A stretch of 64,000 bases of DNA from a virus. A model generated the notes under the pieces. That model had not been told where the DNA came from. It searched no databases and saw only the letters and a list, made by a program, of their open reading frames with translations. Below are positions 5,939 to 11,221 of the stretch, piece by piece. The position numbers were made by a program, and so were the translations under genes. How positions within the stretch are numbered: the first letter of the stretch is position 1; every line of letters begins with the position of its first letter. The stretch spans positions 1 to 64,000 of the IMG/VR virus record IMGVR_UViG_3300021130_000224, one strand, 5' to 3'.

Positions 5939-6386
5939 TTTTATGTATTTTAAGGTAATCAATAGCCTCTTGTAATATGTCTATATTATCAGTAGACATT
6001 CCTAATAAATGATTACATCTATGACAAAGCAATCCTCTAATTTTTCCAGAATTATGACAGTGGTCTACTGATAGAAATCTTACGTTTAAGCTTCTATTTT
6101 TAGAAGTTTCAGGTTCTTTACATATAGCACAAACATTTCCCTGACTTTCTAACATTTTATCATAATCTGATAAAGTCATTCCAAATGTTCTTAGTAGATG
6201 GTTCTTCCTACTATTGGTAGCAAACTCTTTCTTCTTTCCTAAATACATTTCACTTGCACAACTTTTACATCTGAAATTTAAACCACAGGAAGCTCTTGCA
6301 TTTTTAGTAAAATTCTTTATAGGTAGTGTCTCCTTACATATGGAACACAGCTTCTTACCATCTATTATAGTTATCTTTTCGCTCAT
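5931..6386 (-). CDS. endonuclease VII-family (His-Me) homing endonuclease
   Basis: N-terminal CxxC..CxxC; YDKMLESQGNVCAIC...VDHCH..GKIRGLLCHRCN; ATG at 6386 just after a sigma-A -7 box. Confidence 0.9.
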   Translation of the reverse strand: MSEKITIIDGKKLCSICKETLPIKNFTKNARASCGLNFRCKSCASEMYLGKKKEFATNSRKNHLLRTFGMTLSDYDKMLESQGNVCAICKEPETSKNRSLNVRFLSVDHCHNSGKIRGLLCHRCNHLLGMSTDNIDILQEAIDYLKIHKNE

Positions 6387-6391
6387 GTAAA

Positions 6392-6423
6392 CAAAAGTAC
6401 AACTTTTGTATAAGATAACCAAA
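6392..6423 (-). promoter_or_regulatory. Bacteroidota sigma-A promoter (leaderless transcript)
   Basis: minus strand TTTG-N20-TACTTTTG-TTTAC-ATG. Confidence 0.75.
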
Positions 6424-6429
6424 TAAATT

Positions 6430-7062
6430 TTAAGGTCGAATATGCTGTAATACTTCTTTTTCACACTCTGGATAAGTAGTATCACCTGTAGCTCCAATCA
6501 CATACGCCAAGTTAATAGCTTCCTTTAGTTGCATTAAACTATAGTGATTAGATACTGAAACTTCATTAGAAATTACACAAACCTCGTTGTCTTTGGTGAG
6601 TTTGAGCTTTTCTTTAAAAATAACATGCTTCATTGTTGACCCTTCATGAATACGCTCTTCAGTATCTAACTCAACCTCATCTATCTCACCATTAGCAATT
6701 ACATACTTCTCAATGAATGATTGCGGTATAGCTGGTAAACCTAATGAAGGGTCTGTTGATGCTATTATTTTCTTCCAACCTTCCACATCTTGAAAAGCTG
6801 ATGGTATTTTATTTTGTATTACCTTATAATGATTTACACCATTATTAATACAAATAACCCAATCACCTTCCTTTATCTCTTCATCACTAAGAACCAGTAG
6901 TTGTTGTGGTTGCCAAATACCACCATCAAAATTATGGGTAGCTATTCTATATCTTTCTACAGCACCTGCTTCCTCAAAAGCTGGTTTTTTAATAAGATCA
7001 TCTGCTTTATAAATACCTTTATCTCCTAAAGGTATTGTTACTATTTGTACTGTCTTTTTCAT
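6430..7062 (-). CDS. hypothetical protein of a type common in Bacteroidota phages
   Basis: LSDEEIKEGDW...KKIIASTDPSLGLPAIPQSFIEKY. Confidence 0.8.
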   Translation of the reverse strand: MKKTVQIVTIPLGDKGIYKADDLIKKPAFEEAGAVERYRIATHNFDGGIWQPQQLLVLSDEEIKEGDWVICINNGVNHYKVIQNKIPSAFQDVEGWKKIIASTDPSLGLPAIPQSFIEKYVIANGEIDEVELDTEERIHEGSTMKHVIFKEKLKLTKDNEVCVISNEVSVSNHYSLMQLKEAINLAYVIGATGDTTYPECEKEVLQHIRP

Positions 7063-7080
7063 TGTCTATATGTTTTTGAA

Positions 7081-7332
7081 TTACCACTTTATTTCAAATC
7101 TGTCCGCAATGACAGTTATTTTATATCCCATGTTCTCTAATTCAATTTTCATAGTATCAACTATATCTCTTGATAGACCAGATGATGTAAAATCCTTTTT
7201 TATGTCAATATTATAAGAAAAATGACCATTACCCGCAACAGTATCTATATACCCTAGTATTACTCTAAGTGAGGACTTTAATGCTTTTTTCCTCATTGCT
7301 TCTGAGTGTGTTTGCTTTTTAAATAGTGTCAT
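7081..7332 (-). CDS. hypothetical protein
   Basis: 83-aa ORF. Confidence 0.75.
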   Translation of the reverse strand: MTLFKKQTHSEAMRKKALKSSLRVILGYIDTVAGNGHFSYNIDIKKDFTSSGLSRDIVDTMKIELENMGYKITVIADRFEIKW

Positions 7333-7373
7333 GTTTTATGTTTTTGAATTGTGAAAAAATCTAAATAAAAATA

Positions 7374-7443
7374 CCTGGAGGCAGTAAAGTGAATCACTCT
7401 CTACTGCTGCTCCAGGTGGCGAATACAACCGACACAGGCTGTA
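7374..7443 (-). terminator. two-hairpin element ending the RNA-gene cluster (terminator or small structured RNA)
   Basis: TACAGCC-TGTGTC-GGTTGTA, linker TTCGCC, then long stem ACCTGGAG..GCAGTA....TACTGC-CTCCAGGT followed by ATTTTTATTT. Confidence 0.55.
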
Positions 7444-7455
7444 ATAATTTGTAAG

Positions 7456-7526
7456 TAGTTCTATCTTGATTTGAACAAGATCTAACTCTGTCAAAGAGAG
7501 TTGTGCTACCGTTACACTATGGAACT
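7456..7526 (-). tRNA. trnQ: tRNA-Gln(UUG), no encoded CCA
   Basis: AGTTCCA acceptor (one C-A mismatch), D-arm, anticodon arm ACTCT-CTTTGAC-AGAGT, T-arm TCTTG-TTCAAAT-CAAGA. Confidence 0.85.
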
Positions 7527-7551
7527 ATTTACCTGTCTCTCCAGGTTGTCA
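7527..7551 (-). repeat. tRNA 5'-leader motif, copy 1
   Basis: TGACAACCTGGAGAGACAGGTAAAT abutting tRNA-Gln position +1. Confidence 0.8.
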
Positions 7552-7595
7552 CGATCCCCTTATTTCATACTGCCTCGTAGACCGTCAACGAGCTG

Positions 7596-7669
7596 TACCC
7601 CGGATTGGACTTGAACCAATGACTCTCAGTTTAGAAAACTGATGCTACTATCCACTGAGCTACCGAAGC
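7596..7669 (-). tRNA. trnR: tRNA-Arg(UCU), no encoded CCA
   Basis: GCTTCGG/CCGGGGT acceptor, anticodon arm TCAGT-TTTCTAA-ACTGA, T-arm ATTGG-TTCAAGT-CCAAT. Confidence 0.9.
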
Positions 7670-7695
7670 ATTTACCTGTCTATTCCAAGCTGTCA
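7670..7695 (-). repeat. tRNA 5'-leader motif, copy 2
   Basis: TGACAGCTTGGAATAGACAGGTAAAT abutting tRNA-Arg position +1. Confidence 0.8.
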
Positions 7696-7721
7696 TAACT
7701 GATTGATAATCAATTAGTTAG

Positions 7722-8106
7722 TGGAGGTATTCGGCACTGCCCCGAAGTCTTTCCTGTGTTCCTGAAGTAGTTACGACCATGACTGAAGATTATCGTCTAC
7801 TGTCTTTAGACTATCTACTTTTTTAAGCTAAGTACATCTTCGTTGCTTATGGTATATAGACACCAACTTTACGGAGCCTAATTTAAAGTAAGGCATCTTT
7901 GTCTTTCTAACCTCAGACAGGTTTGTAATGTGATTAGGCAGCAATAGCTACTTCACCAAAGATTTCTGCAAGCAGAGAATCAACATTACCATCGAAAGAA
8001 ACTGTAGTTTCTGCGTTTATTGTTACCATATTTGCTTTGGACTCACTGGCATTGTCTGTTTCGCCACTTTTACTAACTACATGAAATCAATAACTGTTTT
8101 ACCCCC
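7722..8106 (-). ncRNA. ssrA: tmRNA, tag peptide AETTVSFDGNVDSLLAEIFGEVAIAA* (8014-7934)
   Basis: 5' GGGGGTA pairs with 3' TACCTCC-A including G3.U70; T-arm TTCGG-GGCAGTG-CCGAA; resume context ATAAAC-GCA; tag ends AIAA-TAA. Confidence 0.93.
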
Positions 8107-8123
8107 ATATTTTAAAGAACTAA

Positions 8124-8153
8124 GGAATCTGGTTAGCTTCCTAACCAGACTCC
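8124..8153 (-). terminator. 13-bp hairpin between the RS/WS ORF and tmRNA (terminator, attenuator or processing stem)
   Basis: GGAGTCTGGTTAG-GAAG-CTAACCAGATTCC followed by TTAGTTCTTT. Confidence 0.6.
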
Positions 8154-8179
8154 AAAGGTAATATTATTTGGTTAATTAG

Positions 8180-8359
8180 TTAACCTGACTCTGACCATGA
8201 CCATGACCTTGACCTTGACCTTGACCTTGACCATGACCATGCCCCTGACTCTGACCATGCCCCTGACCATGACCATGCGCTTGACCATGACCATGCCCCT
8301 GACCTTGACCTTGACCTTGACCTTGACCTATTTAGTTTTTTTAAATGAGATGTTATCAT
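8180..8359 (-). CDS. 59-aa RS/WS dipeptide-repeat protein (not in the ORF track)
   Basis: [59 protein letters not shown]; ATG 2 nt after the upstream stop; hexamer repeat (A/T/G)GG-TCA. Confidence 0.8.
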
Positions 8360-8361
8360 AA

Positions 8362-8646
8362 TTACAAAGTTGTCTTAAATGATTTACCAAATGATTCTAT
8401 TGCAGATAACTGTACATACCACTCATCAGATAATTTTTGAGCATCTTTAAATTTACTATCTGAAAAAGTTCCTGTTTCAAATACCTGATAAACTTTTTCA
8501 AGTTTTATACAAGTTGTATTTACTCCTACTAATTTACCATAGTAAAAGTAATTAAAACAAAAAATCAGTACTTCTTCACCTATAAGTGAGACAAACCCTT
8601 CATTAGGAACTTCTACTAATTTTGCAGTAACTGGTTGTTGTAACAT
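8362..8646 (-). CDS. small beta-barrel protein, predicted Sm/LSm/Hfq-like fold
   Basis: SLIGEEVLIF..NYFYYGKLVGVN..CIKLE resembles Sm1; WYVQLSAIESF resembles Sm2. Confidence 0.65.
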   Translation of the reverse strand: MLQQPVTAKLVEVPNEGFVSLIGEEVLIFCFNYFYYGKLVGVNTTCIKLEKVYQVFETGTFSDSKFKDAQKLSDEWYVQLSAIESFGKSFKTTL

Positions 8647-8682
8647 TGTTTGTAGTTTTAAGATTAAAAATTAAAAGTAATA

Positions 8683-8946
8683 TTATTTAGCTAACTTCTC
8701 AGCATGTTCATACTGTAACCAGGTCTTTCTCCTACTATCAGGATACTTCCACTGTTGGTATTCAGTTTCATTGTAACAGTAGCCAGCAGCACCAAATTCA
8801 GGATTGTGCACTATACATATCAGGTTAGGTATAAACTCATCACCTGATACCCGGGTGGCACCATCTGCAATGAGTGATCTGATTTTTTCTTCTGCTGTAA
8901 GACCTATAGATAATCCTTTACTATCTTCGTTAATGTACTTTCCCAT
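8683..8946 (-). CDS. hypothetical protein
   Basis: 87-aa ORF. Confidence 0.8.
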   Translation of the reverse strand: MGKYINEDSKGLSIGLTAEEKIRSLIADGATRVSGDEFIPNLICIVHNPEFGAAGYCYNETEYQQWKYPDSRRKTWLQYEHAEKLAK

Positions 8947-8972
8947 TTTTAGTTTTGTTGTGAGTTAAAAAT

Positions 8973-9001
8973 AGAAAGCCGATAACTTGTACCGGCTTTC
9001 T
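8973..9001 (-). terminator. intrinsic terminator
   Basis: AGAAAGCCG...CGGCTTTCT then ATTTTT on minus strand. Confidence 0.7.
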
Positions 9002-9010
9002 GTTAAATTA

Positions 9011-9394
9011 TTACTCTGCTGTTGTAAGTTCTTGCCAATTGGGAAAATAGCAATTTCTGTAGGATTTCAAACGAGCCAAACCTTTCTCATAACCTTCAAT
9101 CTTTGTATCATGTGCAGCTAGGCTTGCCCAGTTCACATTTGATGTCTGCAGGGAATTTTCACGGCTCCTGATTGCATTTTGATGATCTCTGGTTGTAGCA
9201 GAGATATCTGCCATCAGGTTACGCAGGTTATCCTCAACCTCGTACTGCAGTTCCCTCTCTTCTCGATCCTTGAGTGATTCTTTCCTGATCTCCAGGTAAG
9301 TAGGCACTGCTACCTTTTTGTTGTTTGCTGCTGCTGATGATGCATTCTGTGATGCTGCTGACTGTGCTCCCTGAGCTGATGTTCTGTTTCTCAT
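9011..9394 (-). CDS. hypothetical coiled-coil protein
   Basis: 127-aa ORF; overlaps the 3' tail of the upstream ORF by about 160 nt. Confidence 0.75.
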   Translation of the reverse strand: MRNRTSAQGAQSAASQNASSAAANNKKVAVPTYLEIRKESLKDREERELQYEVEDNLRNLMADISATTRDHQNAIRSRENSLQTSNVNWASLAAHDTKIEGYEKGLARLKSYRNCYFPNWQELTTAE

Positions 9395-10382
9395 TTGTTT
9401 GAGTTTTTGATTGTTGATTAATTGGTGAAAAATTGTTTGATTGATTGTAAGTTGGGTAATTCTTTTTAGGACCTAAGTATACATGGATAGTTCCTGATAT
9501 ATAGGCATAGCCGTTTTCATCTACAGATTCTACTTCTCGGTCACCATAAAAATCTACTAAAGTATCATAAGATTCTTTTTTGGGACCAGTATAAAAAGTA
9601 GTAAATGAATTAAGCCATTTTTCAGGTAGTACATCTCCTACTTTCCACTGATCTTCTACAGGTGTTGTTTGTTGTTTACCTTGAGCAAGTGATATCTCTT
9701 CGGGAGTAGCTGGTCGTATGCAATCAAAAATAAAAAATAATTCTTGTTGATTACAATTTGCTTGTAGTTTGGCCCCATAACCAAGAACAGTACATACTTT
9801 TACTACATCACCTTCAATAATAGACTCATACTTAGCGGGATTACTAACTATATAAACATAATCACCTTCTTTGAAGACTACCTTTTCTGGTTCTTTTTTA
9901 AAACTTGCAAGAGTCTTCCATTCTTCAAATGTAAAAATAGGATATTCTGTTTCAGGTTCTTCTTTTTCAGAATCATGATACTCATTACCATCAAAGAAAT
10001 AGTATTTATCTGATCCACCTATACGGCAATCATCAAAATGTCTATTTATAGCATATGCAAACTCTCTTGTTTTTCTATCATTTTCTGAATCAAAACCGGG
10101 ATTAATAACCCAATGCTTCTCAGGTAATTCTACAAATTCATATGTAGCATTAAGATGAATACGCCATATCTCACCGTATTCTTCTTCTACATTAAAACCT
10201 GAATCAGAATCAAGTAAACCGGAACAAGCTTTTTTGGATGTTACTGTAACTATTATTGGTTCTTTGTGTGAGCCATAACCAAGTATACCAGAGCAACCAT
10301 CAATACCATTTGAACCTTTACCTGAATCAATCAGTTTGATCTTTGTTCCTTCAGGTAAATAACTACCTTTATTGTGCAACAT
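9234..10382 (-). CDS. multi-domain hypothetical protein (SH3/KOW-like modules)
   Basis: 382 aa; FKEGDYVYI..IRPATPEEI and WKVGDVL modules. Confidence 0.75.
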   Translation of the reverse strand: MLHNKGSYLPEGTKIKLIDSGKGSNGIDGCSGILGYGSHKEPIIVTVTSKKACSGLLDSDSGFNVEEEYGEIWRIHLNATYEFVELPEKHWVINPGFDSENDRKTREFAYAINRHFDDCRIGGSDKYYFFDGNEYHDSEKEEPETEYPIFTFEEWKTLASFKKEPEKVVFKEGDYVYIVSNPAKYESIIEGDVVKVCTVLGYGAKLQANCNQQELFFIFDCIRPATPEEISLAQGKQQTTPVEDQWKVGDVLPEKWLNSFTTFYTGPKKESYDTLVDFYGDREVESVDENGYAYISGTIHVYLGPKKNYPTYNQSNNFSPINQQSKTQTNEKQNISSGSTVSSITECIISSSKQQKGSSAYLPGDQERITQGSRREGTAVRG

Positions 10383-10407
10383 AGCATTTTGTTTTATTGG
10401 TTAAAAA

Positions 10408-10626
10408 TTACTTTTTCAGAAACTCTACCTCATCAGGATTACCTGTAAGCTTTTTGTAAATTAACTGTGCTTTAGCTGCAGATATTGCAGTACTGAACGC
10501 TTTGATGGAAAGATCACATACCTTGAGGTCCTTAGATTCTTCCCACTGTTTGTTAAGTGTATCACCAACATCAGTCATTTTTTCAATGACATCACTTACT
10601 GTTATTTTCTTTTTGCTTTTTTGCAT
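10408..10626 (-). CDS. small helical protein paired with the upstream Zn-finger gene
   Basis: 72-aa ORF. Confidence 0.75.
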   Translation of the reverse strand: MQKSKKKITVSDVIEKMTDVGDTLNKQWEESKDLKVCDLSIKAFSTAISAAKAQLIYKKLTGNPDEVEFLKK

Positions 10627-11221
10627 CTCGTTTGAGTTTTAATTGTTTACGTTGAAGTTCTACAAGTTCTTGAGGAATATCGGAATGTTTAAGATTTGTA
10701 TCTAAAACAAGTGTTGATTTTATATAAATATCAGTAAGATTTTCACGTCTTTGTTTTGCAACTTCTCTAAAATATTCTCTTGTTTTAGCACTTCTGATAG
10801 GATCATTTTTCTTTCTGGCTCTATATTTTCTTCCATCAAGAACCATTTTTCCATTTTCCTTATATTTTAAATAGTATTTTTTTTCTTGTTCTTTTACTTT
10901 ATCAAGATTATTAATTCTCCATCTTTTTCTCTGTTCTGCTTTTGTAAGACCACAACATACCTTTTTTTTATATTCAGCAAGTGGAATTACTCCTTTTTCT
11001 CTATTACGTTTTATAATATATTCCAATACACGTTTTCTATGATTAAAATCTTCGTTGTATCTTTTAACATTTCTAATACGACAAGATTCTCTATCACAGT
11101 CAATACAAGTACCTCTTCTTTGTTTGATTTCTGAGTTTTTGTATTTTGTATGTATTCTATATTGCTCAATATCTTTTTCTTCACCACATTTTTTACAAAC
11201 TCTTGTTATAGATGGTACCAT
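10592..11221 (-). CDS. basic Zn-finger protein (homing-endonuclease-like N-terminus, no HNH core seen)
   Basis: CKKC...CIDC, Lys/Arg-rich helices, C-terminal LTDIYIK...IPQELVELQR; likely start at 11221. Confidence 0.7.
   Translation of the reverse strand: MVPSITRVCKKCGEEKDIEQYRIHTKYKNSEIKQRRGTCIDCDRESCRIRNVKRYNEDFNHRKRVLEYIIKRNREKGVIPLAEYKKKVCCGLTKAEQRKRWRINNLDKVKEQEKKYYLKYKENGKMVLDGRKYRARKKNDPIRSAKTREYFREVAKQRRENLTDIYIKSTLVLDTNLKHSDIPQELVELQRKQLKLKRDAKKQKENNSK

Follow-up and report, generated by a model that had tools for sequence, protein, structure and literature searches.

The window analyzed here, a stretch of 64,000 nucleotides within a virus record of 108 kb, belongs to a tailed phage whose terminase, portal and major head genes lie at 18–27 kb. 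At 8180–8359 on the minus strand, in a block of small genes that also holds an endonuclease VII gene and two tRNAs, it contains an open reading frame of 59 codons closed by TAA, with its ATG at 8357–8359. The sequence, the ORF listing, Tandem Repeats Finder and, for the leader, the comparison with relatives delimit three segments: a leader of 10 codons (8330..8359), an array of 24 hexamer units encoding an X-Ser/Ala dipeptide repeat (8186..8329), and a last Gly codon with the stop (8180..8185). The frame follows the gene of a 94-aa acidic protein (8362..8646, minus strand; ORF listing), predicted to have the Sm fold, from which it is separated by a 2-nt spacer (8360..8361; TAA TT ATG). This spacing, which is consistent with translational coupling of the two genes, is the one given in the preliminary description: the upstream TAA occupies 8362–8364 and the ATG 8357–8359.

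Behind the leader, the peptide reads five RS dipeptides, four central 18-nt blocks, each reading (G/S)A-WS-(W/E)S, four further RS, two WS, one ES and the final G; the central blocks, flanked on both sides by the RS runs, are in order GA-WS-WS, SA-WS-WS, GA-WS-ES and GA-WS-WS. The resulting tally (9 RS, 9 WS, 2 ES, 3 GA and 1 SA) matches exactly the one previously reported. The hexamers involved are AGGTCA, TGGTCA, GGGGCA, AGCGCA and GAGTCA: 20 of the 24 units encode X-Ser, with TGG, AGG or GAG as the X codon, and the four X-Ala units use GGG or AGC. The peptide carries a charge of +8.6. According to Tandem Repeats Finder, the array (8192–8329, period 6, 23 copies, 83% matches, score 143; score 176 for the same array at period 18) is the strongest tandem repeat of the window, and it occurs only once in the record.

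Since a hexamer array of this kind is open in several frames, the open frame at 8180–8359 is weak evidence when taken alone, and it is the comparison with relatives, described below, that argues against a chance frame. Two shadow ORFs overlie the array in the window, one at 8172–8294 on the minus strand, with MV/KV/RV repeats, and an antisense one at 8197–8361 on the plus strand, with MT/LT repeats. Elsewhere, gene callers seem to report wrong-frame products of such arrays (Gly-Leu or Val-rich), for example at the N-terminus of protein P0196.

The transcription unit likely ends at a terminator-like hairpin (8124..8153, minus strand) identified by motif scan and minimum free energy folding; it comprises 13 pairs, begins 27 nt past the peptide stop and has a weak T-rich tail. 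In the loci most closely related to that of the window, L009 and L010, another hairpin followed by a T-run is found at the equivalent position. An 87-aa gene (8683–8946, minus strand) precedes the Sm-like gene, and a second terminator-like hairpin (8973–9001, minus strand) lies just upstream of it, so that the unit may consist of three genes and extend from 8946 to 8124. The 87-aa protein has scattered relatives of its own, near which the module is absent. Just past the first hairpin lies a divergent tmRNA-like gene (7670–8110, minus strand), which aligns with the tmRNAs of L009 and L010 over the 5' acceptor arm, the tag frame and the 3' end and contains a tag-like ORF (7934–8029) ending in ...EVAIAA. 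The tmRNAs of L009 and L010 are confirmed by Rfam (62 and 56 bits); the segment in the window scores merely 13–17 bits with Rfam and gives no match with ARAGORN. A megablast search of GenBank phages with positions 6000–11000 returned no match.

The preliminary description had called the protein encoded upstream Sm-like. An AlphaFold2 model built from a 51-sequence alignment (pLDDT 93.2) shows the elements that define the Sm fold, i.e. five antiparallel, strongly bent strands preceded by a short helix at the N-terminus. When this model was compared to the PDB with Foldseek, the top matches were all Sm/LSm chains (probability 1.0), and VIA-align superimposed it on the archaeal SmAP 1jri_C over 71 residues (Z 11.3, rmsd 2.0 Å), with more than 400 chains reaching a Z of at least 8. 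The 94-aa protein is therefore confidently predicted to adopt the Sm/LSm fold.

At the sequence level, by contrast with its structural model, the protein matches nothing in Pfam, PHROG, NCBIfam, PADLOC or the PDB sequences. In Pfam, neither this protein nor any of the 51 family members gave a match at E ≤ 1, which places the 94-aa protein outside the LSM, Hfq and Phage_Hfq profiles with their Sm1 and Sm2 motifs. An hhalign comparison of the family profile with 22 archaeal LSm genes was not significant (probability 1.6%, P 0.033). In the weak alignment obtained, the Sm1 motif finds a counterpart in a G-x-L-x-G-x-N stretch only, and the D-x-H-x-N of LSm proteins falls opposite N-T-T-C-gap: the uridine-contacting His and Asn have no equivalent, and RNA binding by a putative Sm-like ring can thus not be assumed. 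An invariant I-E-S near the C-terminus is tentatively assigned to the place where the I-R-G of Sm2 would be expected. Structural neighbours of the protein in BFVD include DUF6948 proteins; the corresponding profile (PF22253) matches neither the protein nor the genome.

The Sm-like family is sizeable (71 clusters when grouped at 90% identity, 515 representatives at 50%), and its nearest clusters in the ESM Atlas are labelled 100% viral, chromosomal copies in Nitrospinales being the exception that we found. The two partners are of opposite charge: the 94-aa protein has a charge of −2.5 and a pI of 5.0, and the family medians are a pI of 4.7 and a charge of −3.5 for the Sm-like proteins, as against a pI of 12 and a charge of +8.8 for the peptides. 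The charges of protein and peptide are not correlated from locus to locus (Spearman −0.13, p 0.30).

Evidence that the frame is a gene comes from the relatives of the window. A search with the 94-aa protein recovered 11 close viral relatives, and directly behind the gene of each stands an ORF encoding a leader and a (Gly/Arg/Trp)-Ser repeat (35–81 aa), which starts at or within 10 nt of the Sm-like stop. A wider set was assembled with the family profile, which retrieved 255 viral stretches, of which 80 were kept, and 20 MAG contigs; 84 non-redundant loci were scored, a locus being counted as positive if its ORF contained five or more X-Ser units. A basic leader followed by the (Gly/Arg/Trp)-Ser repeat was found behind the Sm-like gene in 70 of these 84 loci, with an ATGA stop/start overlap in 26 of the 70 and a gap of 1–10 nt in most of the others. 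As for the 14 negatives, four have shortened peptides of 13–19 aa (L069, L077, L082 and L083), one has no peptide (L084), two are cut by the contig end (L086 and L110), one was missed by the strict filter (L078), and six are Nitrospinales loci with a non-repeat peptide. Since the peptide is very short or absent at L069, L077/82, L083 and L084/85, it is dispensable in some lineages.

The leader is basic throughout the family, of the type [KR]-[QN]-[KR]-[YWF]-R, and that of the window peptide is identical in L009 and L010. The window displays all the features that define the module, namely an ORF that begins a few nt from the Sm-like stop, a basic leader, and Ser at every second residue in alternation with residues that are mostly Gly, Arg or Trp and encoded by NGG; family-wide, the variable residue X is mainly Gly (37%), Arg (27%) or Trp (25%). 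The preliminary description had singled out frameshifts and stops in related genomes as one observation that would speak against a gene. Such lesions are rare: the frame is kept, apart from the few shortened or lost copies mentioned above and from L115. In this alphaproteobacterial MAG contig, the array shifts frame twice, at differences in the length of G runs, and no frame reads through; we suspect sequencing error at the G runs, or else a decaying copy. As judged from genome comparison, hundreds of uncultured phages thus share the pair and keep its two genes tightly coupled, which substantiates the proposed tie between the peptide and its Sm-like neighbour. Fusion of the two products by programmed frameshifting or read-through was considered and rejected: the relative frame of the two genes differs among loci and the peptide has its own start codon.

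The pair appears to be a self-contained cassette, found in unrelated genomic contexts. No conserved third gene was found: once the Sm-like gene and its antisense shadow ORFs were set aside, the largest cluster of neighbours covered 10 of 101 loci. Nor was the peptide recovered from the resources searched, in agreement with its initial description as an unannotated small coding gene. None of eight such peptides looked up in a collection of 15 billion proteins was present; a HMMER search with the peptide yielded 114 word candidates, none of them significant, which composition correction removes; the ESM Atlas gave no usable match, and Pfam, PHROGs, NCBIfam, PADLOC and the PDB sequences gave nothing meaningful. 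In GenBank phages, tblastn with the Sm-like protein retrieved a single uncultured record, MW202825.1, in which no annotation covers the Sm-like gene or the first peptide gene.

As shown by codon usage, selection acts on the amino-acid pattern, i.e. a basic leader followed by Ser at every second residue in alternation with Gly, Arg or Trp. Indeed, all six Ser codons are in use across the loci (TCT 513, TCG 508, TCA 327, AGT 98, AGC 94 and TCC 23), albeit with a uniform Ser codon inside each array, which shows that serine rather than the DNA is conserved: a switch between the TCN and AGY boxes changes two or three bases, and serine is kept. The dominant unit is NGGTCT at 21 loci, NGGTCG at 18, NGGTCA at 15, NGGAGT at four and NGGAGC at three. 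The X codons are essentially GGG (574), TGG (437), AGG (276) and CGG (145), with only 35 other Gly codons. One locus, L063, does without NGG and encodes Tyr/Arg/Gly/His-Ser through NNC-TCG units (TAC, CGC or GGC followed by TCG), thereby keeping the aromatic, basic and small residue classes. Likewise, the leader motif MITSH is kept in L015 and L018 despite synonymous changes (ATA to ATT, ACA to ACT or ACC, TCT to TCA). The other frames are not conserved: depending on the locus, they read Gly-Gln/His, Gly-Leu, Gly-Arg, Gly-Val or Gly-Ala, or run into stops.

Both the length of the array and the order of Gly, Arg and Trp within it are hypervariable. This is seen by comparing the window with L009: although the flanks are about 99% identical, the two arrays are separated by in-frame indels and by numerous substitutions at the first base of the hexamer. 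Together with the Ser codon data, these in-frame indels confirm the earlier observation that variation preserves the frame and the Ser/Ala at alternate residues. Within arrays, the mean entropy at hexamer positions 1 to 6 is 1.53, 0.34, 0.24, 0.25, 0.19 and 0.20 bits; the base that changes the residue is therefore far more variable (1.53 bits) than the strictly synonymous sixth base (0.20 bits). Such a mode of evolution, in which one residue-changing base per hexamer is maximally diverse and the synonymous bases are uniform, is unusual. The order of Gly, Arg and Trp is random-like (adjacent identity, mean z −0.1 in 58 arrays), and slippage of single units was rejected as the sole source of variation, as adjacent identical units are not enriched. 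We infer that units arise and are lost rapidly, which keeps the synonymous sites uniform; that Trp being encoded by TGG only, single changes of the first base would yield Gly and Arg; and that the mixture of the three residues is probably maintained by selection or by a site-specific process.

A version of the pair that is not a repeat was found in Nitrospinales. Out of the 101 Nitrospinales genomes searched, 10 harbor a single chromosomal copy of the Sm-like gene (the loci L116–L124 and L128–L136 are on MAG chromosomes); in nine of these 10, it is followed, with an ATGA overlap, by a gene for a peptide of 49–51 aa with a non-repetitive, conserved sequence, and in the tenth our script found no peptide behind the Sm-like gene. 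The motifs of the Nitrospinales peptide are an RRNR-type leader, SASG.KSW, SWSG and a C-terminal SW.G. At the annotated Nitrospinaceae MAG loci, the neighbours are genes for an Xre-type HTH protein and an Mrp/ParA Fe-S ATPase, and a DUF971-like gene. Conservation of this non-repeat version shows that the product matters as a peptide, and its motifs point to a functional core made of the leader and of Ser-Trp/Ser-Gly motifs.

Taken together, these data make the frame at 8180–8359 very probably a real coding gene of this module. We favor, with moderate confidence, the fuller view that it is a translated microprotein gene whose product would be a basic, multivalent binding partner of the Sm-like protein, acting on RNA or another polyanion or in assembly. 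Binding of the peptide to the Sm-like protein, which is suggested by co-occurrence, coupling and opposite charge, and an RNA-related mechanism of the pair are put forward more tentatively. According to this model, the two proteins would be made together from a single transcript, and the peptide, extended and mostly disordered, would serve as a detachable multivalent basic arm. Its basic leader and its Arg/Trp side chains, lying on one face, could dock onto an acidic, aromatic-rich Sm-like oligomer, and the complex would then bind RNA or another polyanion, or drive higher-order assembly during infection. The role assigned to the arm is modelled on the covalent Arg-Gly tails of eukaryotic Sm/LSm proteins. 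A hint as to the geometry of the repeat was provided by L047, a natural locus in which the two genes are in frame: when it was read through the TAG and modelled by AlphaFold as a single chain, the first units of the repeat formed a beta-hairpin (pLDDT 82/64) and the remainder was disordered, so that a beta-strand geometry can be suggested from a model of moderate confidence that includes an artificial tether and lacks the ring.

Several other explanations take the array, and not its product, as the relevant object. It could act as nucleic acid, in the form of protein-binding hexamers, of G-rich or structured RNA or of origin-like iterons, the frame being incidental. Sm proteins bind repeated RNA motifs, NGG is nearly invariant, Gly is encoded by GGG almost to the exclusion of its other codons, and NGGUCN arrays, whose units are complementary to one another as RNA when two G-U pairs are allowed, fold far better than shuffled sequences (z −5.3 for the window, family means from −2.7 to −5.9). 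However, NGGAGY arrays show no special folding (z about −1), the last three bases swap between the TCN and AGY boxes yet stay serine, and L063 drops NGG and retains the residue classes; in addition, the start codon, the leader and the placement of the stop are conserved, and the Nitrospinales version keeps its peptide sequence and is not a repeat. We consider this explanation very unlikely and treat the strong folding of NGGUCN arrays as a by-product of the codons used. Even less credit can be given to the idea of a neutral microsatellite with a functionless open frame: the array does vary extensively between near-identical phages, and a few lineages have a shortened array or none, but its position is the same across hundreds of divergent phages and the frame, start, leader and serine are maintained, which strongly disfavors it. 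The ORF could also be a leader peptide, or attenuator, whose rare NGG and Ser codons sense the tRNA supply and control the downstream tmRNA-like, tRNA-Arg(UCU) and tRNA-Gln genes. tRNA-Arg(UCU) reads AGG codons and, in the window, L009 and L010, tRNAs and a tmRNA or tmRNA-like gene come immediately after the ORF. Yet a tRNA is found near the pair in only three of 60 further loci scanned, and a tmRNA was reported in none of these 60: a tmRNA follows the pair only in the closest relatives of the window. We therefore dropped linkage to tRNA or tmRNA genes as a property of the family, and neither attenuation nor membership in an RNA/translation module is supported family-wide. Moreover, the constant neighbour is the upstream Sm-like gene and nothing downstream, the hairpin between the ORF and the RNA genes resembles a terminator with no obvious alternative pairing, and the sequence class of the peptide is conserved. 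Attenuation is accordingly most improbable.

Other explanations accept the peptide and assign it a different role. The main rival is that of a cationic, Arg/Trp-rich, membrane-active or toxic peptide (antimicrobial-like, lysis helper or toxin of a pair resembling a toxin-antitoxin system), the acidic Sm-like protein being its chaperone or antidote. Arg/Trp-rich peptides are classic binders of membrane interfaces; the peptide is strongly basic and rich in these two residues, its upstream partner is small and acidic, the layout is typical of two small coupled genes with an ATGA overlap, and the cassette is self-contained and moves between unrelated contexts. On the other hand, Gly is the commonest X and Ser occupies half of the positions, which makes for a low hydrophobicity, there is no conserved link to lysis genes and no PADLOC match, and a Nitrospinales lineage keeps a single chromosomal copy amid ordinary cellular genes. 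On these grounds, we deem a toxic peptide unlikely. The peptide might otherwise be the precursor of a RiPP, its repetitive core being modified enzymatically, e.g. into Ser-derived heterocycles or Trp crosslinks; it has a leader and a variable core, some RiPP cores are rich in Ser, Gly and Trp as this one is, and the partner, at about 90 aa, has the size of a recognition element. Against this, no YcaO, radical SAM or lanthionine synthetase gene is conserved beside the pair in about 100 loci, where families other than the Sm-like one reach at most 10 of 101 loci and thus offer no conserved modifying enzyme; the partner has the predicted Sm fold and not that of a winged-helix RRE, and the leader has merely some 10 residues. 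A RiPP precursor is hence scarcely probable.

To return to the basic partner of an Sm-like oligomer, the closest known counterparts are the eukaryotic Sm/LSm proteins with basic tails (SmD1, SmD3 and SmB with Arg-Gly tails; LSm4 and LSm14/Scd6 with RGG segments). They too combine an Sm-fold core with a basic, disordered, dipeptide-periodic segment rich in Arg and Gly, which makes them a plausible working model. However, in those proteins the basic segment is covalently joined to the Sm domain, whereas the phage segment is the separate product of a coupled gene: none of 221 Sm-like family proteins contains a fused X-Ser run. In addition, the phage peptide is X-Ser instead of Arg-Gly, with Trp as 25% of X, and hypervariable, and the phage core is acidic, shows no resemblance to LSm proteins in sequence and appears to lack the canonical uridine-contact residues. 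We have therefore not filed the module under this kind, in view of the missing fused tail, Arg-Gly character and profile membership.

The preliminary description had termed the peptide SR-like. The RS domains of eukaryotic SR proteins indeed consist of alternating Arg-Ser runs and are basic and predicted to be largely disordered, and the RS runs and basic character of the phage peptide stand. The term nevertheless holds only as a loose analogy: Arg makes up about a quarter of X family-wide, behind Gly, and RS accounts for 9 of the 24 units in the window, whereas RS domains are dominated by Arg-Ser and attached to an RRM; the phage peptide has no Pfam domain, no RRM and no known kinase context, and is free-standing at about 60 aa. 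Another parallel is offered by the poly-GR/PR/GA products of C9orf72, in which a hexanucleotide array is likewise translated into a dipeptide repeat with Arg units and changes length in frame. Those products are pathological and arise from an expanded intronic repeat by ATG-less translation; the phage peptide, by contrast, is a conserved gene with a start codon, a leader and a partner. Among phage proteins, the nearest published case is that of GoF, MotB.1 and Frd.2, small proteins of T4-type phages that have been described as having an LSm-like fold, and the part of that publication available to us reports no repeat-peptide partner for them (PMC12152347). Together with Phage_Hfq (PF23874), they share with the 94-aa protein a small size and an Sm/LSm-like fold, with a function that is RNA-related or unassigned, but the protein of the window belongs to no Pfam family by sequence match.

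Searches of the literature with peptide strings and for DUF6948, phage Sm-like proteins with dipeptide repeats and phage hexanucleotide repeats turned up no publication on either of the two families or on their pairing. If our reading is correct, gene callers systematically miss a whole family of small phage proteins, whose fixed partner would be an orphan Sm-fold family (some 500 clusters at 50% identity). Such a pair would also constitute a compact natural system made of a folded oligomer and a separate, low-complexity, hypervariable partner, a combination usually studied with eukaryotic tails and condensates, and the fixed, non-repeat version of Nitrospinales would provide a second and simpler experimental entry point. 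A bolder possibility, which we regard as improbable, is that the Sm-like ring has swapped ligands and accommodates the repeat peptide instead of, or besides, U-rich RNA, with one Arg or Trp per subunit pocket; peptide and ring would then form a multivalent phage scaffold that reorganizes host or phage RNA metabolism, and an arms race with a host target would have diversified the order of Gly, Arg and Trp. Were this the case, the pair would be a bacterial-virus counterpart of the LSm/RGG condensate proteins.

Note, finally, that the number of copies of each partner can vary. At least two tandem peptide genes, each with a leader, stand behind a single Sm-like gene in L101/L104, L061/L065, L111 and L126 (MW202825.1), and in L101/L104 every one of them is preceded by its own GGAGG ribosome-binding site, a further point in favor of genuine peptide genes. 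In L111, a sequence that looks tRNA-like by eye is located between the Sm-like gene and the peptide genes. Conversely, the proteins P0072, P0074 and P0134 (about 190–220 aa) each contain two Sm-like domains in tandem.
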